64,000 nt of DNA from Tubulanus polymorphus (Eukaryota > Animalia > Nemertea): contig NC_134027.1 of assembly GCF_964204645.1 (NCBI RefSeq), positions 6,108,485 to 6,172,484 on the forward strand. The letters are read 5' to 3'. The translations under genes and the position numbers were made by a program. Within the stretch, counting starts at the first letter, position 1. Each line of letters begins with the position of its first letter. This document shows, one piece after another, positions 6,401 through 64,000 of the stretch. The notes under the pieces were generated by a model that saw only the letters and a list, made by a program, of their open reading frames with translations, made no database searches and was not told where the DNA came from.

Positions 6401-9400
6401 TCGAAAGATGCAAATATATTGCCAACATCGATCTTGCGGGGACAATATAGTATACAAATATATATGAATATCATAGGGCCTTTGAAGTCTGGCTATGCAA
6501 AATGCTTTCGAAGACATGCAAATTTGAGACCGACGTATTGAGACTACGAACTGGTTACAAAACCATATATCTTTGATTTGGAATTGTACACACATGCTTA
6601 TATCTTGTCCAGTTTCACAAAAATAAATTCTGATTATTGATGACTTCTCAATTTCAATAACGATAAAAGTGATTATTTCTGTGAAATTGGACCCAGAAAC
6701 GAGTTCTAAACATTCCGCATAATTGGAGTTGAGTCCCTGGTACGGTTTCATCATATTCTCCTATGAATGATGGCTACGGGTTAAAAGATTATTACGTGAT
6801 CTAATGCGATAATGATTTATTTATTTACGAGTACACGGATCCTACATTGGGATTTAGTGCATTCTCTGCAGTAAAGGGAAATTTACAATATGCGGACATT
6901 TTCTATTATGCATACTAAATTAGAGCATTCTGCACGTAGCAGTTTACGATGGATTTGATCCACTACCATAATATGAGCGCCCGATCGACACCGTTTCTTT
7001 CACTTGAATCAAGTTCATCTATATTTTCATTTTTAGATAATTAGTTTGCCCAATACCCATCATACAATTCTGATAGACGCAGATTTGAATTCATCAAAAT
7101 ATGTAAATATATGGGTATATAATCTAAGAATCGGGTTTAAGTCTGTTTAAGATTGGTTTTTTGTTCGATAAAAGCCCTTTCTTCATCTTATGGAATATAT
7201 ATTTCATTTGCCTAATAGAAACAATTTCTGCATAAATTCCCGCACTGATACATATACACATATTCGTCAAATATCTCGGCATAGTATCCGTTTTCGATTT
7301 TGATGCGATATTGAAAAACCTTTTTCCAATATTGCATTAGAATAAGTCGTGTCACTTGATAAGCCGAAACCTGTCACTCGCCAGTCCTGTTAATGTTTGT
7401 TGAAAGTATACATCAATGTTATTGTGCGTTTGATGTGTGATTTAGATCGGTTTGAATAAAATAGTAATTAAAAATCGTATAGTTGAATACTGATTATACG
7501 TGAAACTCCAGAGATCAGAGACTTGTTATAATAACGTACTGGATAAACCTTCATCTGTGGAGATATTGATTAATTGCTAATTTCTATTGCATTGCTGGAT
7601 TGTCTTTTTACAGAACGAGTCACCAGGTCAGCCTGGTGAAGGTGTACAGAAAAAAATTCGACGAAAACTGCCACCACTGCCACCGGGCGTTGTCGAAAGC
7701 CCCGTTCCGTCGAGAAATGCTTCGGAAAGGACGGCTAGTGAAGATCGCGACAAGCCTGCGGTGCCACCAAAACCAGTTCGAGGTGTCGCGAGGAAAAACT
7801 CTGCTCCTCGAAATGAAGTCGAATACAACCGAACCGAACAAAAACCGGCGCCAAAAGCCGTCGTGGAAGTTTCCAAAGAGCGCGTATCTGCGATGCGTGA
7901 TCGTTTTGAGCAAGCAGCAGCCGCCGAAAGCCCGCCACCACCACCAATCATCCGCCGAGATTCGCCGAAAAGATCGAAAGCTCAGGAAAAACGCCAACAG
8001 AAAACGGACGAAAATCAAGTGCCTTCAGACATCCAGCCAACACCTAAACCTCAACCCATTCATGATAAATCTCAACCAGCTTCGTCTACTGCCAAACTCC
8101 AACCGTCGAAGAAGATAGGTGAAACACGACAACAAAAAACAATGAAGGAAAGTGCAAGAGAGGAAACTATCAGTATTCGAGGGATACATGTCCCGAAAAA
8201 GGTAAAGGTTATGAAAGATTTGGTGAAAGATGAACTAAAGTTAGTGACATACTCGAGAAAAAGGCAAATTGAAGAATTAGAAGAAATACGCACTCTTGAA
8301 AAGCAATTAGATGATATACGGGAATTGGAAAGGCAACAGCGAGAAGAGCTACAGATGAAATTGGCCGATCAGGCTCAAGCAGATCAAATTAAACAGATAG
8401 AAACGATGAGGCTAATGAAATCCGCCTCGCATTCACCTTTACTAAGCGGTCGCATTTCTCCACATGTATCACCCAGTCGATTCTATACGACTCGACAAAA
8501 TTCCGACCCGCTTTTAGCAAAATTCTCACCCATCGAGGAATATAAAGACATTGAAAAGGAGTACTTCAGGAAACACCTCTCCAGGACGAAATATAGGTCT
8601 CCCGATACAGTCGCATTGGACAACAGACCTATTCACCGAACGGGCCTTAATTCGTACGATCAGCTGATGAACACTTTGCGCGGTAGAAGTCGCGATCGTG
8701 AAAATAAATATGCAAGAAGTAACAATCGCCTATCACGATCGTCGGAATACTTAACTCGGGACAGCGGTTATGAGACATACGGCGTGTACGCGGCTCCAAC
8801 ACCGCTCGCGGGAAGTCGATCCGAACGGTCGTTGTTGACCGCTTTCGACGACGACCCGATTAGTTATTACGGATATACTAACAACCAGAGACGATATACC
8901 AGGGATAAGTCACCAGGGCGTATATCTGACATTACTGGAATCCGTTACAGGTCACAAAGTCACGGAAGGGTTCCAGAAATGTCGTTACCCCGCGATTTAC
9001 GCGTTTCGGACGATGAGCTGTTACGTTACGATATTTGGCGTTACGAGGATGAGGTGATCAGAAAACGTTACCGAGATGCGAACGCCGCTCTGTTTCCGAG
9101 CGATTCACTTCCTAAAGGTATCATCAAACCGATTGCCGATTCGCCGATACCAAAACCAGAGGGTCGTCAGAGTCGTCGTGATCGGTATCTACAATCCAGC
9201 GCGTTCGTGCCCGTGAAAAGTGCTCCATCGAAAGCGCGAACGTATAGTTCAAGCGAGTATCTCTCACATCGAGGCGGTGATAGAGTCGAAACAACGCATC
9301 AGTATTATCCGGTATCGGGATTCGATCAGTTCTACTCGGATCCGCGCAATCTCAACCCTCAGAGAACGACAGGTTACAACATTAGTAAAGATTCAGGAAT

Positions 9401-12400
9401 GTCGAGCGGTCGAATTGATGACTTCTCACCGGTTGCTACGGATACGAACAGTGAAGCAAGTATCAATGATAAGACTCCTGCTATGCCTCTTCTTGGTGAT
9501 CTTACCGGGAAATCACGCAAACGCCTACACCACATCAGCAGCAGCCGACCGACATCAGGGGAATTCGATGCCTACTTCGAACTAGAGGGTTTGTACTTAA
9601 CAACACTACCCCACCCGACTCCCTACCGAATTAGATACCTTTCTCGGTTTCAATATATCGCCTAACTTTTAAAAAACATACATCATGTGGTATTACAATT
9701 ACATGTATATAAGTAACATACAAATTAACGTATACATGGTACATAGTTATCAATAGAATATTAAACAGAACCGCTCGTTCTTTTTTTTCAAGTGAATTCG
9801 TACGTAAGTTGCATTTTTGCATTTCAGAAGGTTTTAACGATCTCCATCGCACGGAAAGTGATATCAGTTTTGGTGGAGATTCCGATGAGCCTATTATGGA
9901 GCACATGACTGAGGGTGGGGTCACCATACTGAGAAGAAAAGTCAAAGAAAAGGTGATCATATAAAAGTATATTACATATGTCATAAATGATAATAAAAGA
10001 TCGCGTGACGACTCTAGAGAGTGAGAGATAGGTCTTTAATGAAAGGATGATTTCTAAGAATTGTAATCATATATTTGTACATGTTACGTTTTACCATAAC
10101 GTACCATAACCGTACCATAACGTCGTTTTCAGCCACCGTGTCCACAGCGCCCGAAAAAGTATCCATATCAAACGAAGCGAATTCTCCTGACCAGAGATCC
10201 CAATCGATCATTAAAAGGTATTTCTTATACGTCTATCAAAGTAGATTCGGAATTTACCGCCGGTATTTATAATTTTGAAGCCATAATTCCTGAAAATGAT
10301 TATTTTTCCGCGAGGATTGTTTACCATATGAATACCACGTGATAAATATCTGGTGGATTATTTTAGGTAACGGTCTCGGTATGAAGATTATCGGAGGTAA
10401 AATAATTCCGGGAACGATGGGAAATACCACGGGAGCGTTTGTGCAGACCATCTATCCGGGCGGCGTCGGTGAACAGCTTCACGGAGAATTACAAGAAGGT
10501 AAATAAACATGAAATACAAATTAACAAAAATATCATAACGGTACTTCAAAACAATTCCATTCCAAATATTATACATGTATCGTATTATATCGTATTGAAT
10601 TTTTTATTACCAGAGTACGTGTATTTAATGTCGTTAATTTTGAACAATATTTATCAGAGGAGAGAGAAATTTAAAACCTGTGGTGTAGGAGTATGAGGGT
10701 GGCATTGATTTTGGAGTGAATTCAATTCGCTTAAGGCATGCATATTCAGGCGACCAGCATGTGCATTGCTTCCTATCCGTATCTATTACGATACATTTCG
10801 TATTTTGTCTTGCTGTTGTTATTCACTGAACTCCGGCAATTCCAGGTGATCAGATTCTCGAGTGGAATGGCATTGAACTCAGTGGCAAATCATATGAAGA
10901 GGTTCAACAGATAACCACGCAACCGAATGGTGAAATTGATTTAGTCGTTAAAGCGTATGTCATCATTCTGTCTATCTACACAGAGACTAAAATAGATCGG
11001 CTGATTTTATTAAATCTATTCTAATATCATATTTAAATGTCATGTATATATTTAGTAATAATTGTATCTTGAGCAGCAATGAGCAGCCGGCTTCTCTGAC
11101 GCACAGTACTAGTAAGACATCATCTAACTCAATAGTGTCGACTTTGAAGTCCGATAGCTGCCACTCCCTTTACGACAATATTGACTTCACAAGTGCCAGT
11201 GACCACGATGATTACGGTACGATTGAGAATAACTGGTAAAAGGCTAATTTTCGTGTTTATTTAAGTCTCCATATTTACATACGTAATTTTCATTCCGTAT
11301 TAGATTCGTATTTCAAAGAGCACCAACACGGGGTGGATCCATCGTTGTTAGCCGCTCATTTGGAAGGCATTAAAAATCGAATGTCGCCCGGAATCTCCCC
11401 GACTTCTTCCCAACACGAAATGAACCAACAGCAATCAACGCCAAAACAATCGCACGAAAAGCCCCGACAAGAAAAACAAGTAAGGCAAAATCGAAAACTT
11501 CCGCAGTCGTCTTCACAACCGCAAATAGAGTCGGCCCAGTCACAACCGGAGCTGCGTCAAACTAAACCACACCGACATCACAAGGAATCCAGGCAACAAA
11601 AACATCATCATAAAAAGGAGGCAAATGAGACTAAACCAATTTCGGGACATTCCAAATCCGCTGAATTACTATCACACTCCGATTCTCCGAAATCCAGTTC
11701 ATCTCATAAAGAAAAGGTAAATATAAAGCTTTTCGTTGATGCGTGAATGTTTTGCAAGTTCGCGAAGAATCTTCATATTTCCTTGATTATTTGACAAGCA
11801 GACAAATAATCATAATAAAAACTGAATATAGCTAATGCAATAAATTCGAATCGTCGGAAATTTTGTCTCTGATTCATATTCGCATTAAACAATACATTTC
11901 ATTAGGCGCGAAGTCCCAAACCAAACATGCAAGAGGAAAAGTACATAGGAGAAATTCAGGTAAGCATAATCTTCGGCGAAAACAGCCATACTGGTTCTCA
12001 GCGAAGAAATATTCATAAATATGTAGGAGTATTCTCTTGAAAAATTACATTTCTAGCTACAATTTGATTTTGATGACTACGACGAATCGCTCAGTGTTCA
12101 CGTGGTTAAAGCCAAGGATCTGGTCCCAAAAAGTGGCGGTGCAACGGTTCTGAATCCATACGTGAAAATGTTCCTATTGCCAGGGCGTGGGTACGTAGAT
12201 TGTTTTGGAAAGCAAGTTGTATACAGAGTGTTCTTAAGCGGCCATAATCTCACTTCACATTCCACGATCTTAACATTCGTATTTCAATTTGGTTTTTTGC
12301 AGACCGGACAACCGTCGGAAGACAAAATTCATTCCGGACACGACCGATCCCGAGTGGCACCATACACTCGTATTCATGACGACTCCCCGAAGCGAATTGA

Positions 12401-46744: not shown

Positions 46745-48563
46745 TTGTTTGTATATTTTGTCTGTACATGTATTTGTGTTATATTACTGCTGAGTATGAC
46801 ATACCTAACATGCAAATTAGCCAAAACTGTTCTACGGTGCCTTTCTAGCCTATGAACGTATAACTCTATTTTTGCCAAATTGTTTTCCCCCTCTGTGCCT
46901 TTGTTTTATGCATATAGAATTATCTAATCCTTGAAGGCATGTTAGGTTACTTTGTTTCATAATTTTCTTTTGATTTAAAAATTGTAAAAACTTGAAAAAA
47001 AATTAAAACTTTTCACATTTACGTGTTAAACGTTTTGTCCGTTTTGACAATCACATTTTAAAAAATTGCCTTCCGTCCTCCGAAGAACCTATGAATCTGC
47101 TGTTTTATCTTTTAAAAAAATTTTTGCCTTTTTTGTCTGCTGTATGCCTTATAGATAGAATAGAAAGTATGTCTTCCATTATCCTCGACTTACCTGTACA
47201 TTATTTATTATACACTGGATACTGTGTGTATACAGTCCGATGTTTTACCAAACCACTCAATTGATCATTATTATAATGTATCTATAATGTTTTTATTACT
47301 ATTTATCTAAGATACAGTAGAATCCTGCCTTCCTTGGTACAATTAGGACAGTAAATATTTCACTCTGATCATTGAAATTGAGTCTTGTGAAATATCAACT
47401 GGTTGTTTTCACTTGTACCATATAAGGAGGGATATACTGTAATGAGTAATGAGATTAGAATAGCCTTCTCTGCTGAAATTAGATAAAGAGAGCTGTGTTT
47501 TGTTATCAATACCAATTGAAATTACTCTTGAGATGTTTATTAACTATTTTTTAAGATGATTATTGCTTCTAGTTCATGTAAATGTATAGTGTATTAAAAT
47601 CTCTATTATATGTATTATTGTCAATTATTGCTATGTATATAAGAATACAATCTGTGATAGAATATACACATCCAATATCTGTGATGCAATGTGTTACATA
47701 CCGTCTATATTTAGGATGCATTAATCTTAATATTCATTAGGGCATTTCAAACCAGTGCTAACGTTTCCTGGTCATAAACAATGATTGAGATTCCGAGAAA
47801 AAATACAGTCAATAGAAAATACTGTGAATAGAATGCGATATAACAGTAATGATAATTTATGTCAATTCTGCTTTTAACCTTGGTTTCGCTAGCAACGTTT
47901 TGAAAGTGTGTTGTTCCAGATACAAATCTATTTGTAGAAGTGTGTTAGATATTTTTAATACTCATTGATATGAATTGTCTACGAATTGTTTGAATAAATT
48001 ATGAATATGTCACATATGAACATTTTGTCTTTGAATAATATTGAGTAATGAATGAATTTTCCACTGATATTATGTAAGTTTTATCAGTTTCAAAACGTAA
48101 CCAAGTTGGACATTAAAAACGACCATCATTTCAAGTCAACTAGGCCAAGTGAAACACCGAGGCAAACTGGTCATAGGCTTCAAAAAGCTTCCTTTGGATT
48201 TAAGAACAACACGATATGAAACTAAATTGCAAAGGATTGGACAGTTGGCTCAGCAAGCTGAAAAGCGTCTGCTTTTGTGGCCCTAAAAACCATTAGACAC
48301 TACCTGATAATCAGATAAATGATAGACTAATAAAGGTTACGAATCATAAACAATTATTCTTTTTAATCAAAACTAAAGATTAACAATAATTTAAAGTCGC
48401 ATTTACAAATTATTACACTCATTACAACTGCACTTGCATGAATTTCACTGACCATCTATGATTTGCAAAAGCTCTATTCAGTCCATTTGAATGTGAAAGC
48501 TATAATTTGAATCTTAATCTATGAAACTGAAAAATCTGAAGTTTTATTCAGAGCAGAGAAATC

Positions 48564-51500
48564 TTAAGATTCACCAGGAGCTTCAATTGGTTCATCGTCA
48601 CTGAAATCCCAAACCTGGAATGAAAAAAGATAAATCAATTGAAGAAAATAGTCTGGATTACAAATGCCCCAAATAACATGAAACAATCACATAAAACTAA
48701 ATCACAGTTTATGTAACCAAACAAAGAGAAACGAAAAATATCTGGAAAACACCGTTTAGGTTCTTCAAGTCACCCCCAGTGTTATAGATGCTTTTCAGTT
48801 CTTTATTGAGCAAACATAGAATTTCATATGTTTTCTTGTGTAAATAAACATATATTTCATCTATACATGTATACATATGTATATTATAACTACTGCCTCA
48901 TGCAATACAAATTCACCTCCTTCCTCAACTTTTAATGAAAGCAGCAGATGTAAATTCAAGAAATATGCACCAGTAAGTTCTCTGCAAAATTTGAATTTAC
49001 AATAAAACTCCGAAATAATCATAGCCCTATAACATACTTCAATATTATCCGATTCCTCTTGTAGCTTTTTCAAACCAGTTAGTTCTTCAAGATAATTCGG
49101 ATCGTTGAATGCTTTTATTAGGAAGTCAAAACCATCAGTTTGGTAAGCATTAAGAACGATTTCACTGCAAGCTGTACAACATTCAAATGCACGACTTGCT
49201 GGTAGCACAGTATGGAAACGAGACAAAAATCCCCTCATCTGAAACGTACAGCATAACTCATTGTGATTGGTAGCACTCAATTAACAACTTCATGATATTT
49301 GCGTTATGGCCTAGTGTTTACTTACTTGATGAGGAACTATGCCTAATGATGAAGCTTGTTCACTGGGCAGGTGCTCATTACAACATCCGGTATCGGCAGG
49401 CGCTTCCCCTCTGAAAACCAGAAATTACCCCGGTATACTGTTGAGCAGCAATCTTTGCCAAAAGTAACAGTTAGATAGAACTTTATAGAATTATGAATAA
49501 AAATCTAAGTGTGCTAGTATATGTTGTGACATAAACATGAAAACATACCCTAGTGGATGTTGTAATACAGAAACAAGTAGTTCCACAGCTAGAGCGCTAA
49601 CCATCATTGAGATACCAGGACGCGAGACTGTACACTGTTGGTCCAAAGTGCGATCTTTCGTAGACTAAAAATATGAAGCAGACATCATGGAACTTTAAAG
49701 TGAAAAGTTTGCTAAACTGAATGATAGGAATGATATGAATGATCCAATGCTCACACTCACATCTCCAGGTGCCACAACATCGTTACAGAAGTAACAGCCC
49801 AATTGATCACCAGTAATTGTATCCAACAATGAATAATCTTTTGGTTTTAGTTTATCCGATTTCAGTCCGTGTCGAATGACTAGGAACGTATCGAACCCTA
49901 AAGCTGCATTCATGACTAGTTTTTGTTTAGATGCTCCCATAACAGTAGGTAACCATCTTGCTTCTCGAGTATCCATCAATAGAAATACTACATCATGTTC
50001 ATCAATAAGTCGTTCTAAGTGAGCCACATCTGCCTTTGTTTGTTCAATAGAATTATCTATACCACGGTAAAAATATAAAGATCTAAATCTACTTCCCTCC
50101 AGTTACAAGAGTTTTAAGTTATATCAGCATGACAAATTACCTGAAATGGCATGTCCAGGCATAGGAATGCTCAAGGTAACACCTGAAGATTTCTGCAAAA
50201 TATTAGCGAAACAGAAGTTATGATCCTACTAGCTGCTGCCAGGGTATGAAGCAGCCGGCTACTTACAACTCCAGGGAAAATTCTACGTAAAGCCTCTGCT
50301 GCAGCCTGCGCTTTTGGTTTACCACCATTTACACAATCCTCGAAAACGAACAATGACTGTCGTACTGGATTCGAATACGATATCTTAGCATTATCTACAA
50401 ACGTAATGGTCCGCACTCCCCAACCCTGCAAAATAGAGAGCATTGAGATGCAGAAAAAATGCATGGAGTTTAAATAGATTTCTTTAAGGCTAGACTCACC
50501 ATTAAATTCCGAGCAACATTGCAACCCAGAGTTCCAGCACCAAGCAGCAGACAACGAGTGTTAGCTATTTTATCCAGATTAAGATCTGGTAACAGGCGCC
50601 ATCTCATCAATTTGAGGTTTAAATCCACTGATGATTCGGCCAATCTATAATTTTACACAACTCGTCAACAATCTGATCTGTCTTAAGAATCTTAACACTA
50701 TTGGATTCAATCACTTACTTAGTAGGATCCATGGATGCGCTCAGGTCAACAGTACGTGGGCCCAGTTTTTGATATTGATTTTTCTCCCAACCAACACAAC
50801 TTGGACATTGTTCAGTTTTGTGCAGTGTTGGAACAAGAATATGTAGAACCAAACTATGCGAGACATCTCTTTTACCATCAGATATCCGATCACGGAAACA
50901 AATCACCTCGACTTCAGTGTCCTCCTGGAACCTTTATCAAAAATATATACCGCTATCCAGTTTTAGTTGACAGATTCATATATTGGAAAATTGAATAATA
51001 TGACAATATATAAAGCTCACCAAAGTTTTCCAGCCAGAGCCAAGAAATTCCTCAAAGGCCATCCAGGATGTTTCTCCAAACAACAGGGATCACAGAAAAC
51101 AAGAATTGGCTGTAAGTACACATGATACAAATCATCTATATAACAAAAAATTCATAAAGCCTATGAATGACACAACCGTACGTATGAAGAATTTGTTGGA
51201 GGCAATTAAAACTTACTTTCATGCCTTGAGATGTTAAAGTCGAATACGCGGTGAGACTAAACAGTTCACTTTTCCCCTCTACATTTTTCAGTAAGAAGAA
51301 TCCATCAGTATTCGTCTGACGAAACTCATCATAACTGATCAAAAAACTTTCCAACTGTATAAAGATGATGGGATAATGAATGAGTCTCTTTCTACTACAC
51401 AAAAATGAACAGTAAGATTATAGTCAATGAACCAGCATACACTGTCATACCTGTGAATTACTGTATTTTTCTGAAAATGTTTTGGTGGGTGAAACATGTT

Positions 51501-52314
51501 TCACTGGTTCAGTCACAAAAGTAGGAAATGTAAACCAATAATGGAATACATATTTCTTCAAATTCTGAAAAACCAATAGTTTTATGAATTTTTTTCAACT
51601 CTGGTTTTCAACCTGTAAAATATTTTCACTGATAAATCGATAGAGAACTTACTGCAAATGTGATCAGGTGGAATTTTACTAATAAAGAAGGATTTTTTTC
51701 AGCATCTCCTGAACATATATCATTCCATAACTGAAAGAATTTACAATATTAAATCATCTCGAAATAGATGATATCATCAAAAGAAGTCATTTGACTTGGT
51801 AAAGATAACTATTGCGTACTTCTTTTCCGTGTTTATCAAGATAGAGTTTTTTATCCAGACTTTTGAATGAGTCGAGAGTATTTGTATTCAGAATTGATCC
51901 ATTTGTTCTAAACAGTCGGGCTGGAGTTTTTGCTTTGCTGCAATAGATGAAATGGAAATGGTACAATATAATGTTCAAACTGAAGTACCGTAGAGGCGGG
52001 AAACCTACTAAAATCTCAGGGACTTGTCACATTCAATGGCGAATGGATAAAACCTGTATGGACTAAAAGGAGTACACACAGACTAAACCATAACCCGGAA
52101 GTCATTATGTTCGTTACCTGTCAAACGCCGAAAAATCTAAGTTTGTTCGACAAGATGAACCAAGGAGACCACCATTAGAGTAAAATCCATGAAGTTCTTG
52201 TTCTTCTTCGGCTAATCCGAACACGTCTAACTTTTTCTGCGATAACGTATGCCAAAATCCGCCGTCTAAAACCGACGAAAAAGGAGCAAACTGTAATTGA
52301 ATGGGCGCCGCCAT
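48564..52314 (-). CDS. ATG7: Ubiquitin-like modifier-activating enzyme ATG7 (autophagy E1); multi-exon
   Basis: [30 protein letters not shown]...NTNTLDSFK...[10 protein letters not shown]...VGWEKNQ...[15 protein letters not shown]...[13 protein letters not shown]...[18 protein letters not shown]...[14 protein letters not shown]...[14 protein letters not shown] (catalytic Cys)...VWDFSDDE; stop at 48566-48564. Confidence 0.97.
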
Positions 52315-52415
52315 CTTGAATAAGGTCACATGACCTGAAAATGGCTTCCGGGTTTATGTCAAACTAGGGGATCTTTTAGAGACGATGAAGGTTGTATAAA
52401 TAACAGTATTTGGCG
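52305..52415. promoter_or_regulatory. Ultra-compact bidirectional promoter ATG7/PPM1H-like
   Basis: 101 bp between the two ATGs. YY1-like AAGATGGCGGC overlaps the ATG7 start, GGTCACATGACC (MiT/TFE M-box/CLEAR-like) lies at 52324-52335, and AAAATGGCTTCCGG (YY1+ETS) at ~52338-52351. Confidence 0.6.
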
Positions 52416-55157
52416 ATGTTTAATCGCATAAAAAACGTTTTTACCAATGTCATTGGAACATCGGGATTGACACTGGCCACAGAAACAACGCTGGGAAACA
52501 ACATTCCTAGCGTGAACTTGGAAGTGAAACAGGCGTACTCTCGACCAGAATTTTTACATCTCTCGCACGATGAGGTAGCTGCATCTTCCGATCACGAAGC
52601 CCGTCTAATTGTAACGCCAAAAGATAACAAATCACTTTGCTGGAATTCCGGTTATGCCGAGTAAGTTGTTTGCCTAATCATGAAATTGCAATCCTAATAC
52701 TTCTAGGCTGTGTTATCTTTTTTGTTGAACCATCGCAATCATTTGATTGATCATGTAATTCACCATGTCTTCCAGAGTGATAAATGCTGGCAAAAGTAAA
52801 GTAAATGAGGACCAAGCAGCATCGGGGACATATGAACTCAAACATGATAATCCAGCTGATCCGAGAGACTATATATTTGCTAGTCCATTTCGAAATAAAC
52901 CTAAAGAGTTAACAGATTTTACATCAGCTCATGTGGTGAGCGGTTAAATGCAACTTTATCTGTTAATATGAAAAGACAGTTTGCGGCATCTTACATTCAA
53001 TCTCAATCTTTGTTTTTAAGGCGGATGAATTTATGCCATTTACATATTTTGGCATTTTTGATGGACATGCTGGCACTGGTGCTGCTTTGATGGCTGCTCA
53101 TACTCTACATCATCATATAGAGGTAGGCCTAGTCTTCAATCGTCTTTCTCTTTCAGACAAAACAGGCTGTTCTGGGAATTGGAATGATTTTGGTTAATTA
53201 CATTTTACCTTATTGCAGGAAAGATTATCTGCTGTGAAATTGCTTTTGCTGGCAAAACATGCCGGTTTGGATGACCACGTTGAACAAAATGAAATGATGA
53301 AATTTGCTCTTCCTCAAAAAGAAGTTACTGTTGATAGCTTGGTGATAGGTGCGCTGGAAGCTGCTTTCAATGCAATGGTAAATAAAACACTATCTATCGT
53401 CCATCATAGATTTTCTGAGAATGATAAATTTCTATACATGTACTTAGAATTTCCAAATTTGAGCCTTCTCATTTCTAGGATGCTCAAATTTTACGAGAAC
53501 GGACAACGTTTCGTATAACTGGAGGTTGCACAGCTTTAGTTGCTGTGTTCATTCTAGGCAAACTCTATGTAGCTAATGCTGGTGATAGCAGGTAAGACAG
53601 GGCTGCTCCTCTTCAAATATATACATTATAGGACATTTGAAGATTCATTGATGTTTGCATTCTTCCAAAATTTCTATAGGGCTGTCATTTGTCGGGCAAG
53701 TTCTAATCAAGTAGTAGAAATGTCCCATGATCACACTCCAGGAACTGAACGTCAAAGACTTCAGAATATAGTAGGTGAATATGTATGTTACACCTTTACC
53801 TTCACATGCGCACACACTAATCCTTCTCTGTGGTTCACATTGATTTCCATTGTGAGATTGTGTTTTTCATTTAGACACATTTATTCTAAGCAATTTCGAT
53901 GTACATGTTTTTTTTATAGTTGAAGATCTAACGCATACCTGTCACATTAATTTTCCCTATTACTTTCTGCATTCCTTCACTATCGAGTATGTTATAGTTT
54001 GTATATGTATTTTCTAGGCAATGCTTCAACCTGATCTGCTTCATGATGAGTTCACTCATCTGGAATTCATGCGGCGACTCAACAAACGTGATCTCGGTAA
54101 AAAAATGCTTCATAGAGACGCTCATATGTCCGGATGGTAAGATCTAGTAGTGATTTATTTTGTTTTCAGTCCTTCCTGAGCCCCTGATAGCAGAAATCAA
54201 GAGCATATAAAACAATATTTTTCAGGGCTTTTAAAACGGTAACTGAAGATGATCTGAAATTTCCACTCATTCATGGTGAAGGAAAAAGGGTATGCAAATC
54301 TTGATTTATATCAGTATCTTCATTACACCATGTATACATCGAGATGCATATGCTATGAGTTTACATCGTGTGTTTATCACAAACATAATATTTTTTCTTC
54401 AGACTAGAGTTCTAGCAACTATTGGTGTAACCCGAGGCTTCGGAGACCATTCATTAACTGTTCATGATTCTGATATTTACATAAAACCATTTCTATCACC
54501 AATGCCTGAGGTAGATACAAAATACAATAGACCTGCTTTTCAAATACTTGTAGTTCTGTATTTATTTGACTTCATGTACCGGTATGTATGTTATTTCTGT
54601 CAGGTTATGGTGTTTGACTTGATGAATGAAGATGTCACGCAGGATGATGTACTTGTAATGGGATGTGATGGATTGTGGGATGTGACGACGCATGAAGAAT
54701 GCATGCAAGTTGTACAGTACTCTTTCAAACAATGCTCCAACACTGAAAATAAGTAAGTAAACATCAAGTAGTGGTGAAATTAGCGTTTAATTGTTATACA
54801 AGTAGACTTTACTATTTAGCTGCTGTGGTTGTGAATAATTCTTTAAACAGGTACATTGTATGATAATGTCAAGAGATAAGTAAGCACCATAACTATTAAA
54901 CTTGAATGTTTATTTTGTATGATTACAGATACATGTTGACTGCGCAGAACCTAGTGATGAATGCAAGAGGGCTTTATAGAGGCAAAGGATGGCGAATCAA
55001 TCCTGATCAAGAAAGACCAGCCTCTGGGGATGACATCTCTGTATTCGTTATTCCCATTCATGCACACAAGATCGAGCACTCACAGAGGCAGAAGGCAACG
55101 GCTAGTTTAGCCACGTATTTCGAGGCTGTGGATGCTGAAAAAGCCAGCGGATCGTGA
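52416..55157 (+). CDS. PPM1H: Protein phosphatase 1H/1J/1M-type (PP2C family); multi-exon
   Basis: MFNRIKNVFTNVIG...YSRPEFLHLS...WNSGYAEVINAGKSKVNEDQA...YFGIFDGHAGTGAAL...LVIGALEAAF...GGCTAL...KLYVANAGDSRA...RVLATIGVTRGFGDH...VLVMGCDGLWDV...ASGDDISVFVIP. Confidence 0.92.
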
Positions 55158-56790
55158 TGATTTCCAAAGATTGGTATGCTAGGTTTACTTTTTTAAGAGA
55201 AGAGTTATCAAATTTGAAGAGAATCTGTTTTTGGCTGATGAGAATTTCTTAGAGACATCCAAGGTGAAATTATAAATTGACCATTTCGTACATTACCATA
55301 AAATGAAAAAGATGTAAACTTTAGCATGTCCATATACTGCCAGATTATCAAAATGTAACCATAGATGAGAAGCATTTCCATAGTCATCCTGATAGTTATT
55401 GTTTAGTGTGCGTGAACTGTGGAGTATTGAATATATACAACAAATTTTGAATGCTGAGTGTTTCATTCTAGATTATAACCTATTTAGTCAATGATATTGA
55501 TATATACTTACACACATGTACCTTTGTCTTTATGTTGTCATTAGAAATGAACCAGTATGATATTTTTGTACAGTACAAAATCTCTACTATTGTTGATACC
55601 ATAGAGTTAAAAATGTAGACATGAAGTTAGTCATATCTTGGAGTAATCATTTGTCAAATGATTACTCCCAAGGTGTTATATTGTAGATGGAGTGGACTAT
55701 GTAGGAGCAGCTGGTTATTCTGAAGAGCTTAGCAATCAATCATATGAAAAAAATAATAACATCATTTGTTCTTTTACTAAATATATCATTATGTTGTTAA
55801 TGGAATTCCTAAAAAATTCATGTTATGTTTTAATTTTGCATTTGAGCATTTCTCAGATTATGACGACATTCCATCAAATGCTGAGGTGTTTTTTTGACTG
55901 TAGTGAACTATGTATTCTGGGGCTGATATGCTAGAAATTTTACAACACTTAGCGTAATGTTCATATTGTCGATGTTTTTGTGCTCACTTTACATATCAAT
56001 TTTAAACCAGAAATAATGTTAACCCTATCAAAGTTATTTTTCAATAAAACTGTTATTTCCATAAAATTTCTTTGTCTTTGTCCTCTAGTTCGGATTGAAA
56101 TTCTTTTTAATCGAAATTTTTGAAGGATTAATAGGGTTGAACGATTCGTTTCCAAACCACTGCAACCACCCGCTAAAGAGCTAACGGAGTATAGGCTACA
56201 ACACTGCCTGTAGACTGGTCGCCTGTCCAATTCTGCGCCACCTGCATTCGCAGTCAGAATAGGTAGATCAATTTTAAGATGTTATTTTCAAGATGATTTC
56301 GTCAGATGTTTATTTTCGCGTAATTTAGAAAAATGACGCTGACGATGCCGACGGTGGATGCGGTTGCTGCGGCATAAAAAAGGATGATAACAATGATGAT
56401 GATGATTATTATTATTTAACCGAGGAGGAAGAACCTGAATTTATTAAAACGCGTTTTCAAATGATTTTAATGAGGTTTAATATTGAATTTAGACAACTGA
56501 GTTTCTTAGGTCATTATTTCTCCCTGCCCTAGTAGAGTTTATAAACAAATTTCCAAAAGGGTTGATTTATGAGGATATTTGGTGGATGTTAGGCTCCCCC
56601 TTCATTCTCCATTCAGATTAGATATTTTTGAAATTTACATTTTTCTAATGGACACTTACGTTTTGTAAAATTTGGTGATTGTTTATTTCACGTATGTTTA
56701 GATATTTCAGTCACGGATTTATTTGGAATTTCAACCTGAATTGAGACAATTAATTCTGAGATATTTTCACCATCTGTAGAACTCTGTTTA

Positions 56791-56943
56791 CAGTGGAACC
56801 TCGTTTTAACAATTTATCAGTTATTGCAAAACTAGAATTTCATTCCAGATAAGACAATATCAATTATTTTCATACTTGATATAACGAATTATAACTAACA
56901 GATTTTCTGGTGCCCTGAAGTTCGTTGCAACGAGGTTCCGCTG
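56791..56943. mobile_element. 153-bp Tc1/mariner-pogo (Tigger-like) MITE with TA target duplication
   Basis: TA|CAGTGGAACCTCGTT ... AACGAGGTTCCGCTG|TA: a 15-bp TIR with one mismatch. Confidence 0.85.
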
Positions 56944-57566
56944 TATAATTTTCTAAATTCAAAGAATATTTTACAGACTTTTCTACATCAATAATTAACC
57001 ACTAAGAAATACTTTCTTTTTATTATTTCAGGTGGTGGGAAAGAAAGGCGAGGCGAGGGTCAATATCGAATGTAGGCTACATGATTTCACCAAGAAACGA
57101 AGATTAGGAACTTAAGGGATTAATTTCACCAGAGACACATTACAACAGCAAGCGTATGAATTTGCACCAGGCAAATTGAAAATTACCACTTTTATTGCAT
57201 TGCACTCAATATTATTATTATCATTTACTGAATGGTTTTTCTTGAGTTTATTTTTCTTCTATCAGAGGACCGGCATCAATGATTACATGATTTTTGTAGG
57301 CTTAAGCAAAATTTAACACTTAATGCGGAAAAAAGTGGCAGGTGGCAGTTTTTCGCGTATTCAACCCGGCGGTGGAACCTTTCATAATGTAAATCCATTC
57401 AACAATAGAGACACAATTGCGGTTTTTCAGAGTTGTTGATATCATTTATACGCGCTATCGAATACGTCACCGGCTGACGACGGTGTACATAAGCATAGGC
57501 CATTCACCTCAGCTTACTCACACTGTGAACATGCTACCGTGGATTCTCCTCCTGGCGATCTTCGCT

Positions 57567-57640
57567 GCGCTCCCGCTCCCGCTCCCGCTCCCGCTCCCGC
57601 TCCCGCTCCCGCTCCCGCTCCTGTTCCTGTTCCTGCTTCC
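57567..57640. repeat. (CGCTCC)n hexanucleotide microsatellite decaying into (TGTTCC)n
   Basis: About 9 perfect cgctcc units, then cctgttcctgttcctgcttcctg. Confidence 0.9.
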
Positions 57641-57790
57641 TGAGGAACGACGTCTTTATGTTTTATGTGTTACTGTTCGTCTCCGTGCTGTCCTGTACTG
57701 TTCCGTTTTAATTAATCGGTTCTTTTTTTCAGGATTTAACCCCTTCTATTTTTCAGGGCCGATTTCTCCGTCGAATTTCAACGTTTGCTG

Positions 57791-58585
57791 GAACAAAACT
57801 AATGTCCGAAAGCGTGCTCTCCTTCGCCGGTCACGTGTCGAGGATGTCAGACAAAGAGTCGGTCAGGAAATGGCTGCCCTCTACACGCCCTCATACGGAA
57901 CACGAAAACCAGGATGACGAGGCCTCACTCTCCCCACGTATCAACAGAGTGTGCTTGGTGACGTCAATGACGGGCAAGTCAGTCGGATTGCACGGGTTAA
58001 AAGTGGAGTGGTAAAGCTGGACTGTCTACTAGTATTCATTGATTCCTTTTCAGGAATTGCTTCGGACAAAGATTTAGTCTTTTCTTTCTTTGCGTTCTAG
58101 CATTCATTGATTCCTTTTAAGGGATTGCTTCGGGCAGGGATTAATTTCCCTGTCTTCCTTTGCGTGCTAGGATTCATTAATTCACTGCGGGATCGCTACC
58201 GTGCTAGCATTCATTGATTCCTTTTAAGGGATTGCTTCGGGCAGGGATTAATTTCCCTGTCTTCCCTTGAGTGTTAGTATTCATTGATTCCGCCTGGGTT
58301 GCTTCGGGCAGGGCTAAGTCTTGTCTTCCTTTGGGTGCTAGTGCGGGCAATCCAGTTGCGCTGCCCTATTTTTGGCTTGGGCAATTTGATAGGTTTGTCA
58401 GTTACTGACGTCACCCGGCACACCCTGTCGGTAAATGGTGAAAGTAAGGCGTGGTCATCTTTTTTTTCGCGTTCTGTGTGAGGGCGTGTAGAGGGCGGTA
58501 TATTCCTGGCTGGCTCTTTGTCTGGTGTTCTCGGCATGTGACCGGCGACGAAGAGCTGAAAAGCTTTCAGACATTAATTTTGTTC
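57791..58585 (+). ncRNA. Long imperfect foldback (~240-bp stem) with a branched repeat cap; candidate hairpin RNA
   Basis: 57791-58032 is reverse-complementary to 58338-58585 with only two small bulges. Hand pairing gives ~35 G:U versus ~13 A:C appositions on the + strand. Confidence 0.7.
58031..58339 (+). repeat. Tandem array of four 64-70-nt units plus one 37-nt partial unit, each full unit with two internal hairpins
   Basis: Units start AG(C/T/G)ATTCATT at 58031, 58099, 58169 (partial), 58206 and 58276. Consensus agYattcattgattcc-loop-ggRWttgcttcgggcaggg-loop-YcYtgtcttcctttgNgtgct. Confidence 0.9.
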
Positions 58586-59049
58586 TGTACCAGGTTTTCA
58601 TCGCTCTTCTCTTTTTTTTTCATTTCAGGACTCCCAAGATGAAGAAAAAGGTGCTGAAGGCGACTACAACGAAGACGATGCCAAAAAAGAACACTGAACT
58701 CGGCAATATTGAAAGTTAAGTTGATACACATGTAAATTACGATGCGTGATACGGAAAGGATTGTGTAACTACAGAATATGGTTCTTTTACTCATTTCAGG
58801 TTAATCCGGAAAGGCCCATCTAAAATCTGCCCACCAGAAGCGCCCACAAAAGACTCCACCTTGAAGTACCACCAAACACTGAAAGACCTGCCGCAACCGA
58901 ACCTGGCAGTCTTGACCTCATCCTGCATGGCAACAGGAATACATACATACATAAAGCTCGGTTGATTTTTCATATCTGGGGTAGAATGCATAGGCGCTGG
59001 TCAAGCTCACCATCTCTGCACTACTTTATTGAAGCTCTGTGGCCGGTAG

Positions 59050-61820
59050 TAAATTGAAATATAGCTAGGCAATGATTGCTTGAATATTTACAATATTAGA
59101 CGAAATGATTGAGTGAGGTCCCTTAAATATTCTTTGGTCTGATAATTAAAATGTAGATTGGTCAGTTATTGATTAAAAGATTTTGTAAGTAGGTACAATT
59201 AAGGTAAATTCAATATCTTATGTGACATTTGAAATTATTCGAATGTACCGTAGATATTTCAGGCCTCATATGACTATTGTTTAACTGACAATCAAGATAT
59301 AGATAGGACAATTTACTAATTAGCAATCATTCAATATCTTGTAATGTTTGATGAGACATTCTTTTGGTGTAGATATTTCAAGGCCCCATATACATTTAGG
59401 CTGGCTTTACTTAAAGATATATCAATTAAACTTTATCGTTGGTTAAAAGATTTTTGTTTACAAATAATATATTGATAAATTTATCAAGATTGAGGCCATA
59501 CTTTACAATATATACTGTGTGCTGCCTCACACATAACAGTAATGAATTTCATAAGATAGTGTCTTGGGCTCTATCGAGGTCTGGTGTTATATGGGGAAAA
59601 CTATGGACTACGGGTCTTTATGAAACAGTGATTTGGTCAAAACACTTTGATAAATCCAGAATAAACCAAAGCTTTGATTGATTTAATTCATTCCTGAAAC
59701 ACTGCGTCTTGTTTTGGGCGATGCATGATAATTGTTGTTTGACTGACAATTAGCATACATCCAGGAAAAATGGCTTAGATATTCACAATTAAGATGAATT
59801 CAATATTTGATGTTAGATCAAAAACTTTTTATATATCATAAATATTTATTGAAATATAGCTGAAATATATAATATATTTGAGCACATCTATAAGTGAATC
59901 AGTCTCATTGCTCTCGCTAGGTATCAGTTCTGTATCGCCAACTGCCGCGCTTACGACGACTAGCCATGCTTTTCATTATTGGCAAAATTTACTCAAACCA
60001 AACTGATTCAATTAATATCTAAAAGCCATACTGTGTGTCAAGTGACGCATATTAGATATAGTTTAACTGAAAATTAGAATCTAAGATGAATTACTCATTA
60101 ACGAATTACTTAGATCGATTAAGGTTAATTCAATTGTTATGTGAAATTATTTCTAATTCCATGGACATTTAAAATGTAGCTGATACATGTGTATCTGAGC
60201 ACATTTATTTATCTGTATCTAAGTGAACCTATGGTGTCTTCATACAGCTGTATTAGTTTTGATACATTTTGTCAAAATCATTTAACGCAGATTTAATTCC
60301 GATCGAATCTGTGCACAAATACATTCTTGGATTTGGAAGGGGGAATATTTCAATTTCACTGTGTATGCCTTATTCTGACAGGATATCCTAAACTTAGGTC
60401 TTATTCCTCTTGCTAATAGCTCTCTTTTACTAACCCCTCTCCTTCAAACTATTTTCTAGCATCATGACTCGCACCGCACCAGGGAGGTCCGGTCATAACA
60501 AGGTCTTTTGGTCCTTATACACAGTGTACTATATAAGGGAAATAAAGATTATATAGCCATTCGGCTAAGGAAATTTCTAATTTACCACTAAAAATATGCT
60601 TTTTTATCTTTAATTTCTGATGAATTCAAATAGTGACGAATTCACCACATCTGAAATTCTAGTCATGTAGATTTTTAGGCTCCATATAAATATTGTTCAA
60701 CTGACAATTAAAATATAGCTAGTATGATTACTAATTAATGTTCGCTTAGATACCTAGAATTTAATTAAAATTAATTCAATGTAATGAATATAAGTGAAAC
60801 GTATTCAAAATTGCACAGTGGATGAGACGACTGTATCGCGCAATGTCATCTGCGTCTAACTGGGCCACATGTGTGTGTGGGATCTGTTGAATCAGTTAGG
60901 TTTTGGGGGATTCTGGGTAAGTTAAGCTAGGTATCAAAAGCTCTGATGCGAAATTAGCAGTTCTAATAGTGATTAATTCAAATTCGTACCGGATCTGAAA
61001 TTCTTCTTGTGTAGAAATTTCAAGCCCCATATAAAATATTGTCCGAGACAATTTCAATTAGGCCTATAGCTAGGACATTATCAATTAACTTATTGATTAG
61101 GTATCTAATTCAGCATCTTCATATAAGGTAAAAGTGCTCAAATCTAAACCATAGGGGTTGATAAGACAACTGTATAATTTAATATTGATTGATATATAAA
61201 GAATACTGGGTATGTTTTAACTCTGTCTCTTGTGCGTAGGGTTTATTGAATCTTTAAGGCCTTGCAGAATTCTGGATTTGTCAAGTTGTGGGAATGATTC
61301 GAGGTTTCTTAAATCTGTAGAACCATGTTACTTATAGGATCAGTGTGCTCAATGCTGGCAGCGCACTCACTCTTCAGTTAGTTATATTATCATAATTACA
61401 AAATCATTGTATATATTAGGAGCAATATTTAGATTTAATGAAATGGATTAGAATACCATTCACTGGGTACAGATGTCGCCATCTGTGGGTAGAAAACATC
61501 TCTTAAGTTTATTAACTGACGATGAAGTAAATTTGATAATACGAACATGGTTTAGCTGACAATCGAAATATATATAGGCCAATATTACTAGCAGGTTTGC
61601 ACTGTATGATGGGCCTGGGTTTCAATAAAAGACACATCAAGAATTTCAAGAAGATAGAAGAGAAGACAGTTCAAAAACGATTTGATAAGATTGATTATGC
61701 ATTATTAAATTTGTTGTAACTCTGGTATTCCTAGAGATGACTATAGATTCTTTAGTTGAATTGTTGTTAAACTATAATAATCAACCATTGCTTAGATATT
61801 TAGAATATAGATGAATTACT
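59050..61820. repeat. Degenerate local repeat family (decayed tandem duplications)
   Basis: Recurrent gtagaWatttcaRgccYcata...actgacaatt...atatagct...attcaat blocks at ~59250, ~59368, ~60666 and ~61010, and again at ~63515. 60650-60930 and 60995-61290 align as a ~345-bp duplication. Confidence 0.65.
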
Positions 61821-62144
61821 ATATGAGTTGAATTTCATGAATATCATTTAAGACTATTATTAAAATCTACGTATCGATCCACATTGCTGATCTTATATAT
61901 GAATTGACATGATAATTATGATCAGTGATATTCGAAAGGATTTTCTGCTCAAAAGGTTCTGCTCTTTTCTTCAGCTTGCCGTTTCAGACGGATTGGAAGA
62001 TAGTTTGAATGAACCGGAATCGAATTTCCCAATTATGTACTTCGATTTCAGACATACTCGAGAAAAACTACAATAAACTTTAAGAATTAGACAAATTTAA
62101 ACGGTGAAAATGACAAAAAGATTAAAGTTAGACAAAATTCTCCC

Positions 62145-62830
62145 ACCTTGTAAACTTTCGGACTAGTTACATGAAAAAAAAGACAAAATATTGTAAAATA
62201 TAGTTATTTCCAAAATCTCGATGTATTGAATTAGGCAGAAAAAAAATAGATAAAATTATTCAACCTTGTAAAGTTTCGGACTAGTTACATGAAAAAAAGA
62301 CCAAATATTGTAAAATATAGTTATTTCCAAAATCTCGATGTATTGAATTAGGCAGAAAAAAAATAGATAAAATTATTCAACCTTGTAAAGTTTCGGACTA
62401 GTTACATGAAAAAAAGACCAAATATTGTAAAATATAGTTATTTCCAAAATCTCGATGTATTGAATTAGGCAGAAAAAAAATAGATAAAATTATTCAACCT
62501 TGTAAACTTTCGGACTAGTTACATGAAAAAAAGACCAAATGTTGTAAAATATAGTTATTTCCAAAATCTCAATGTATTAAATTAGGCAGAAAAAAATAGA
62601 TAAAATTATTCAACCTTGTAAACTTTCGGACTAGTTACATGAAAAAAAGACCAAATGTTGTAAAATATAGTTATTTCCAAAATCTCATTGTATTAAATTA
62701 GGCAGAAAAAAAAATAGATAAAATTATTCAACCTTGTAAACTTTCGGACTAGTTACATGAAAACAAGACCAAATATTGTAAAATATAGTTATTTCCAAAA
62801 TCTCGATGTATTAAATAAGGCAGAAAAAAA
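62145..62830. repeat. Tandem satellite, 116-118-bp unit, ~6 near-identical copies plus a diverged copy at ~62920-63020
   Basis: The unit start accttgtaaaStttcggactagttacatg occurs at 62145, 62263, 62380, 62497, 62613 and 62731. Confidence 0.95.
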
Positions 62831-64000
62831 GTTAACCCCAATCAGTCACTTAATATGTGCTTCGACTATTTAAACGGTGAAAATGACCAAAAAAATTGAA
62901 GTTAGACAAAATTGTTAAACATTGTAAACTTTCGGACTAATTACATTAAAAAAAGACCAAATATTGTGAAATTATCTTCAACAATATAGTTATTTCCAAA
63001 ATCAGAATTAGGCAGAATAAAAGATTGTTTGAATGAACCGGAACCGAATTACCAATTATGTTCTTGGACTTAAAAAAAAGAAGATCTGTAAAAACGACCG
63101 CCGATCACGCAACGATATATGTACTTCGATTTCCGATTTTGAAAAAAAACCGCCGTATCGCTCCCGGCAGGTGTGGTAGGTTTGTAAGGGACACCAACTC
63201 GAAAAGTCAAACGAGAGCTTGAGGTCAACAACTCATCAAAAATCTGCCAATTAGAGAAAACAGTGCACAGAAACCAACCGACTTAGGAGATCCTCGTCGA
63301 TGATGAAACCAGCAATCATAAAAGGTAACTTTATATACATGGAGTTATTACGATGATTTCTAAATGTCATGATTACAGGATATATTTGTTTACTCATTGC
63401 AGCTAAGTTTCAACTATAAGAAAGAGACCAGCTTAAAATCAACTACTCATCTGAAATCTACGGATTTGAACAACCCACAGAAGAATCAAACTCATTAGAT
63501 GGAAATTACCGGTATATAGAAATTTCAGGCCTCGTATGAATATCATTTGATAAGTGATTATCATCGAAATCAATTTACCTGTCCACATGGCTGATCTTAG
63601 AACTTTTATCTTTACTAGTCTTACACCTTGGAGTAATAAATTTTTCAAATGATTACTCCAAGCTTAAACATTGATGAACTAGTCCTACTACTGCAATTAT
63701 TTATTGGGGTTTAAATCGGCAATTGACGTCAATGAACATAATTCTGATTTTGGAAATAACTTTATTAACTAAGTGAAAAACACGGTGGCTTGTAATTTGA
63801 AATGACATGTAAGTTATGATAAATCTGTCTAAAATGTTTTGCTTTCTTCACTTTGTTTCAGTCAAACTACATCCCGGAAATAATGGCCTGAAGAAGACAC
63901 AAGTAGACAAATACCCATTGACCCATTTGCTGATGAAAACTGCAGAAGCCCAGATGAGAAGTTTAGGAGCCAGCGACGGATTAATCACTCAACGATGGAA

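Follow-up and report, generated by a model that had tools for sequence, protein, structure and literature searches.

The base pairing of a long foldback in the 64,000-nt stretch of Tubulanus polymorphus DNA analyzed here (the window) is asymmetric between the strands, and an RNA duplex formed from the + strand is the best explanation of this asymmetry, as the initial annotation had proposed from an excess of G:U pairs. The structure was probably selected as + strand RNA, whatever its role. It makes up the internal core of a many-copy repeat dispersed in the genome and is not a MITE with arms at its ends, although the foldback resembles one in being multicopy. Our tentative reading, held at a little under even confidence and drawn largely from predicted folds, is that this core encodes a + strand hairpin RNA that would likely be cut into small silencing RNAs. 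The two arms of the foldback are located as follows.

57791..58038, + strand: left arm, from strand-neutral alignment and folding
58332..58585, + strand: right arm, from strand-neutral alignment and folding

Strand-neutral local alignment places the arms where the foldback had initially been drawn (57791..58585) and pairs them with a 4-nt bulge towards the outer end and a 2-nt bulge towards the inner end. The central duplex is ungapped over 209-211 bp, in line with the earlier claim of no indel across the central ~210 bp, and an inverted-repeat search returned this foldback as the longest in the window (209 bp ungapped, 72%). It scored 278 in a 1.2-kb sliding scan with a runner-up of 56.5, and the scan found no second foldback of comparable size in the window. 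Continuation of the stem into the flanks was rejected, pairing there being not above shuffled controls. No target-site duplication was found at the arm ends, as had been observed before; the best flanking direct repeat is 5 nt long, with its ends shifted by 10 nt. The 248 paired columns of the arm duplex comprise 181 Watson-Crick pairs, 38 G:U pairs, 13 A:C mismatches, and 16 others, close to the initial hand count of ~35 G:U versus ~13 A:C. The G:U share of the G:U and A:C columns (38/51) departs from 1:1 with a binomial p = 6e-4 and from an arm-composition null with p = 0.025, the latter null being conservative because the composition is itself partly a product of the G:U excess. The wobble pairs are evenly oriented, 19 with G and 19 with U in the left arm, and the numbers of G:U and A:C columns along the stem are 22/4 in the inner third, 3/6 in the middle, and 13/3 in the outer part. 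When Watson-Crick and G:U pairs are counted together, 219/248 columns are paired on the + strand compared with 194/248 on the - strand, fully paired 21-nt windows number 35/228 and 3/228, respectively, and the longest unbroken runs are 46 bp (ending at 57869) and 29 bp (ending at 57901). The G+T content is 63% in the right arm and 48% in the left arm, and the CpG observed/expected ratio of the arms is 0.9-0.96. Folding of both strands against 20 shuffles each, a check suggested in the initial annotation, gave RNA energies of -436 kcal/mol (z -24) for the + strand and -327 kcal/mol (z -18) for the - strand. With DNA parameters the corresponding energies are -171 and -162, such that the + fold gains 109 kcal/mol as RNA and 9 as DNA; the near equality of the two DNA energies indicates that the strand asymmetry matters for RNA. 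The left arm also contains motifs between 57830 and 57970 that we take to be E-box-like, YY1-like, and CRE-like, which may be due to chance or to a promoter origin of the arm.

The loop, 293 nt long, consists of structured units in tandem within 58029-58341, four of them of ~70 nt (U1-U4) and one shortened, with joints at CTAG. This array and the multicopy state described below are additions to the initial annotation.

58029..58100, + strand: loop unit U1, predicted three-way junction with a 10-bp closing helix and hairpins of 6 bp and 8-9 bp
58097..58170, + strand: loop unit U2, last hairpin ~12 nt ahead of CTAG
58167..58207, + strand: shortened, diverged loop unit, from reading of the sequence
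58204..58277, + strand: loop unit U3, 93% identity to the U2 region across 91 nt
58274..58341, + strand: loop unit U4, with the most G:U of the units (11/23 pairs)

Each of the four units can be drawn as a predicted three-way junction, and the 3' end of U4 is predicted to pair with the start of U1, closing the long stem. The minimum-energy folds predicted for U1, U3, and U4 depart from the hand-drawn junction. The fold energies on the + and - strands are -27.7/-18.1 for U2, -29.5/-16.5 for U3, and -19.5/-7.2 for U4, and U1 alone gives a weak fold with no strand preference (-10.3/-11.0). The 97 pairs of the hand-drawn + strand helices include 68 Watson-Crick pairs, 25 G:U pairs, 4 mismatches, and no A:C, a count in which the choice of helices by hand on the + strand favors G:U. 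The last hairpin of U1 has A-U at two pairs that are G-C in U2 and U3, giving two A-U to G-C double changes, and U4 has G:U at one such position. Across the four related units the pair count was no better than in shuffles (244/500, a count in which the third helix was misregistered), and comparison of the units with Rfam families gave no match.

Assembled contigs of four out of five sequencing runs were aligned to 53000-60000 at 80% likeness. A gene of the PP2C family (Pfam PP2C), presumably PPM1H judging by its sequence, has its stop codon 2.6 kb upstream of the hairpin, and an ATG7 exon in the window is 100% identical to Tubulanus polymorphus ATG7, with the other 119 listed matches at 69% or less; both neighbors are single-copy housekeeping genes. 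Run X1 is DNA-like, with a single 7.8-kb contig that includes introns spanning PPM1H at a depth of 35. The resulting repeat features are listed here.

57340..60000, no strand assigned: high-copy core of the dispersed repeat, holding the hairpin, from depth; extends beyond 60000, with the left limit estimated from a single bin average
56205..57354, no strand assigned: left part of the repeat region, from depth and contig ends
57568..57621, no strand assigned: (CGCTCC)9 microsatellite inside the repeat core

The summed X1 contig depth over the hairpin and both flanks is 1,300-9,700, or 40-280 times the single-copy level of 35. It amounts to 5,275 and 5,259 in the bins on either side of the arms, to 9,708 and 8,559 in the outer arms, where double counting is likely, and 1,315-1,342 in the inner arms and loop, and it is down to 1,136 at 60000. 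One flank position is covered by up to 20 distinct contigs, and the copies are uneven in extent. The foldback family is read as tens to hundreds of diverged copies, on the understanding that summed depth is not copy number. Both flanks are as multicopy as the arms, which places the arms inside a larger repeat and not at the ends of an element. The initial annotation had held that many genomic copies with terminal inverted repeats and target-site duplications would mark a foldback DNA transposon; the many copies are present, and the arms do not form ends with a target-site duplication. Unique sequence stops near 56208, a boundary estimated from where a 600-nt single-copy contig terminates. The left part of the repeat begins with a short high-depth piece followed by a lower-depth segment (summed depth 290-480), and another copy skips this segment through a joint from 56254 to 57355. 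Around the microsatellite (57529-57640), the CGCTCC array would read on the - strand as Glu-Arg repeats, flanked by acceptor-like and donor-like sites, and on the + strand as Arg-Ser; a Pfam scan of the open reading frames gave no protein support for these frames.

Run X2 bears on possible transcription and is RNA-like in that one contig skips eight GT..AG introns of PPM1H. The same run holds family contigs over the arms and loop, from which strand and level are unreadable and for which DNA carry-over is possible. Among the 15 joints shown of 38, no GT..AG joint lies inside the repeat. The splice signals on the + strand are the following.

57722..58799, + strand: splice-acceptor-like sites ending at 57732, 57756, 58628, and 58799, predicted only
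58444, + strand: best donor-like site, within the right arm, predicted only

A candidate intron of 80-85 nt is predicted ahead of 58799, and TTTCAG-type sites in 56000-60500 number 10 on the + strand and 5 on the - strand, a weak difference. In X2, a family variant with a 1-nt deletion at 58670 (58629-58995) accounts for a depth of 956 of 1,221 and is absent from two other runs, and one subfamily may thus be preferentially expressed. For the small-RNA machinery, Formaggioni et al. (PMC11114477), whose main text does not name Tubulanus, report Nemertea to be without DICER2, some nemerteans to retain siAGO without known cargo, and Notospermus small RNAs to give no endo-siRNA signature (21 nt with a 19-nt overlap). 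The same paper reports the endo-siRNA pathway as lost in trochozoans and describes a single Dicer that serves both pathways in C. elegans. The reported lack of DICER2 and of an endo-siRNA signature counts against the hairpin-siRNA reading.

A Pfam scan of 46 open reading frames (12 + 34) gave real matches in the host genes only, with the matches in the repeat below the curated cut-offs and no credible match among the frames of 56000-64000; no transposase or terminal repeat was found for the repeat. Coding constraint on the arms was rejected, the arm differences being even over codon positions (21/20/19). Searched against 1.84 billion proteins, a profile of the frame common to both arms gave two matches, each a tandem-repeat protein whose score was inflated and which had no pairwise similarity, and for the second arm frame 0/7 candidates (lengths 70-224 aa) were real. 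An Atlas search with a downstream open reading frame gave scores of at most 0.83, which is chance level. These protein searches with the two arm reading frames found no target or source gene for the arms. DNA pattern scans gave 1 and 0 matches in viral contigs and 0 and 11 in metagenome contigs, and all 12 were dismissed as chance matches of 32 nt or less in GC-rich contigs. Six Rfam 15 matches in 55000-61000 had E values of up to 5 and were all far under the gathering threshold, no hammerhead match being among them, and ARAGORN found no tRNA or tmRNA. Motif scans for hammerhead and HDV cores gave five hammerhead core-like matches, at the level of letters alone, in 56000-64000; none of them lies in the foldback, which has no HDV-like core either. 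A search of the open-access PMC/bioRxiv literature, judged by titles and the first lines of abstracts, turned up no account of a nemertean element of this kind.

The history of the window copy was read from 40 of 398 variant rows. Of these, 34 were counted as private to the window copy, meaning that the window differs from essentially all X1 contigs, and six rows (55570, 56544, 56554, 58060, 58375, and 58867) were left out as lying outside the repeat or as not showing the X1 majority letter. The private changes comprise 8 A>G/C>T, 8 G>A/T>C, and 18 transversions, and the recent decay of the window copy is strand-symmetric within the wide odds interval of this small sample (0.33-3.1). In the same 40 rows, where an arm position has another letter throughout the contigs, that letter turns a non-Watson-Crick pair into a Watson-Crick pair in 6/6 cases; five of these six positions belong to the right arm, to which contigs of the left arm may have aligned at 80% likeness. 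A 2-nt insertion after 57815 in other contigs makes the outer bulge smaller, and a minority variant at 58375 breaks a G:U pair. The window copy resembles a family member in slight decay, the stem being better in the other copies, and the excess of G:U, judged from these 40 of 398 rows, looks older than the window copy.

An old inverted duplication without function, carried in a mobile element, could acquire G:U pairs through strand-biased A>G/C>T change on the + strand, by deamination while single-stranded or transcribed or by editing followed by reverse transcription, which would turn Watson-Crick pairs into G:U without selection; we consider this explanation rather doubtful. On non-transcribed strands in mammals, A>G changes exceed T>C and, locally, C>T changes exceed G>A, which would supply such a bias, but fish introns show the reversed A>G direction, both according to PMC2927911. 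The bias would have to be about 2-fold or stronger, since at least 38/51 would be reached with P = 0.02 under a 1.5-fold bias, P = 0.15 under a 2-fold bias, and P = 0.61 under a 3-fold bias. The 8:8 private changes argue against it, and the initial assumption that neutral decay gives G:U and A:C in equal numbers agrees with them, although that assumption fails if A>G/C>T is favored on a transcribed or single-stranded strand. The G:U to A:C ratio does not differ significantly between the arms and the private changes (p = 0.12). Transversions relative to G:U-type changes are fewer in the arms (13:36) than among private changes (18:8, Fisher p = 5e-4); a scarcity of transversions is also predicted by strand-biased deamination, and relative to A:C-type changes the arms are no different from the private changes (p = 0.26), which favors mutation, as does the null covariation result among the loop units. 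The register, in contrast, is intact across 209 bp despite 28% differing positions, two double changes separate the loop units, and no element-wide G+T skew is present, with values of 0.40-0.55 in larger segments outside the hairpin. Sequence context speaks against mutation as well. ADAR-edited sites are depleted of a 5' G, which is present at 15/38 wobble G positions versus 25/87 paired A (p = 0.30), a count that assumes that every G:U arose by A>G; the wobble sites do not have the context of an ADAR-hyperedited retrocopy. A CpG-type context of the G:U sites is likewise absent, with 10/38 wobble U positions in TpG. The small gain as DNA, the lack of ADAR or CpG context, and the symmetric recent decay together support a + strand RNA duplex.

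The fold could instead be a cis structure in the RNA of a non-autonomous retroelement, for example a Penelope-like one, that recruits a reverse transcriptase or packaging protein, so that each jump would select the + strand fold; this is unlikely in our view, despite accounting for strand-specific selection without Dicer-2. The multicopy state and the sharp depth step at ~57340 with a slow rightward fall, as truncated copies give, agree with such an element, and the repeated structured units are suited to protein binding, but the depth fall fits a 3' end on the - strand, opposite to the strand that folds, and no poly(A) tail is found at the depth step. Penelope-like elements and retrozymes carry a hammerhead ribozyme motif in their repeated part, and the foldback has neither a hammerhead nor an HDV-like core; the 46 open reading frames show no reverse transcriptase or Gag remnant against Pfam, and splice-like sites persist on the + strand, a weak objection. 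A host family of hairpin-RNA genes of the Drosophila kind, grown by ordinary duplication and silencing the paralogous source gene of the arm, is quite unlikely. It shares the structural evidence of the hairpin-RNA reading and agrees with the lack of a transposase, terminal repeat, or target-site duplication, and in flies an hpRNA locus may comprise several inverted repeats that are related to one another and have matches to their targets, as stated in PMC10292708. Against a host family, however, the 40-280-fold depth, the up to 20 contigs per site, and the uneven copies fit a dispersed element better, the neighbors PPM1H and ATG7 are single-copy housekeeping genes, no target was found, and DICER2 is reported missing from the phylum (PMC11114477). 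Least probable, and very unlikely, is an element of the Helitron type, in which the + strand would be displaced and fold as single-stranded DNA and the loop units would be repeated Helitron 3' ends. Helitrons begin with a 5' TC, insert between A and T, and end in a hairpin ~12 nt before a terminal CTRR, and a strict scan of the window for a hairpin followed by CTAR passed only two sites on the + strand, one of them the end of U2; the element region further includes a microsatellite and, towards the right, tandem units of 117 bp. The DNA energies are nevertheless nearly strand-neutral (-171 vs -162), the loop units are internal with repeat extending on both sides, and a scan of 56000-64000 that required T after CTAR found 0 sites.

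Under the hairpin-RNA reading, an inverted duplication would have made one arm, and selection on + strand RNA in the copy-producing lineage would have kept Watson-Crick and G:U pairs and purged A:C and other mismatches, after which the cassette would have been amplified as DNA within a non-autonomous element. Its transcription from the + strand is predicted to give a 248-bp G:U-rich duplex topped by four small three-way junctions. The duplex would be diced by the remaining Dicer (Dicer-1) and its products loaded on an Argonaute, with silencing aimed at the element's own family or at the source gene of the arm. The G:U pairs would preserve the RNA duplex yet weaken the inverted repeat in the DNA, as they do in G:U hairpins engineered in plants. 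It is conceivable, but doubtful, that the element carries its own hpRNA gene, producing Dicer-2-independent endo-siRNAs for a siAGO that was kept after the loss of DICER2. If true, the hpRNA would be borne by a transposon in animals regarded as having lost the pathway, and it would account for the retention of nemertean siAGO, for which a strand-specific, high-copy hairpin is a concrete candidate substrate. The tens to hundreds of copies offer natural variation for a covariation test, which single hpRNA loci do not, and if the pattern is mutational it would be a clear case of a G:U excess mimicking selection.

Some fly hpRNAs are G:U-rich and have tandem units, and our search of the open-access PMC/bioRxiv literature found no support there for their G:U richness. 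Drosophila hpRNAs (Nmy, Tmy, and others), which are endo-siRNA precursors, resemble the foldback in their long, imperfect inverted-repeat duplex made from one strand. These fly loci are few, Dicer-2-dependent, and have named target genes, according to PMC13228617 and PMC10292708, whereas the foldback belongs to a high-copy repeat, its host phylum is reported to be without DICER2, and no target was found. Fly hpRNAs are low-copy host loci, in contrast to the depth of 1,300-9,700 versus 35 seen here. The foldback is accordingly hpRNA-like in anatomy, as far as its predicted fold goes, and we do not class it as a Drosophila-type hpRNA; the single-locus gene of this type that the initial annotation had put forward is not supported for a multicopy family in nemerteans, which are reported, in PMC11114477, without DICER2 and without an endo-siRNA signature. 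By analogy, the nearest precedent for a repeat-borne hairpin would be rice miR820 in CACTA transposons, also a hairpin precursor dispersed inside a repeat family. miR820, a microRNA hairpin that acts in trans, has a demonstrated target in OsDRM2 (PMC3459959), in contrast to the 248-bp stem and junction array of the foldback. The window contains no partner for the CACTG at 56202. Foldback transposons and MITEs share the multicopy state, long inverted repeats, and internal tandem repeats, but the arms here are internal, lack a target-site duplication, and have a divergence of 27% that is strand-biased. In engineered plant G:U hpRNA transgenes the DNA inverted repeat is weakened and RNA pairing is kept; as described in PMC9263138, these hairpins still drive RNAi and escape self-silencing. 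The transgenes are artificial and in plants, which makes them a mechanistic analogy only.

Several further observations concern the surroundings of the repeat. The CpG observed/expected ratio is 0.5-0.65 over ATG7 and PPM1H (48001-56000) compared with 1.1-1.4 across the first 24 kb, a drop of the pattern expected of gene-body methylation. Run X5 carries the same species label, and over 53042-54698 its PPM1H exons are less than 90% identical to the window, with the repeat uncovered, which may reflect a divergent population, a cryptic species, or a mislabel. At the left edge of the repeat (56211-56247), run X4 has a joint whose two sides are separated by telomere-like letters. A small MITE at 56790-56945, its inverted ends flanked by TA, reaches a summed X1 depth of 13,900 with many differing flanks. 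A palindromic element of ~45 nt has two copies in the window (55628-55683 and 63616-63673) and is multicopy, 41 contigs continuing with unlike sequence at 55668. Further right, recurring diverged AT-rich modules of 50-150 nt that are 62-84% alike occupy 59050-63600 (for example 59225-59322, 60647-60737, and 60961-61107), and six AT-rich tandem units of 117 bp with 96% identity lie at 62129-62830, in part inverted at 63739-63858; this tandem array may be part of the large repeat that holds the hairpin.
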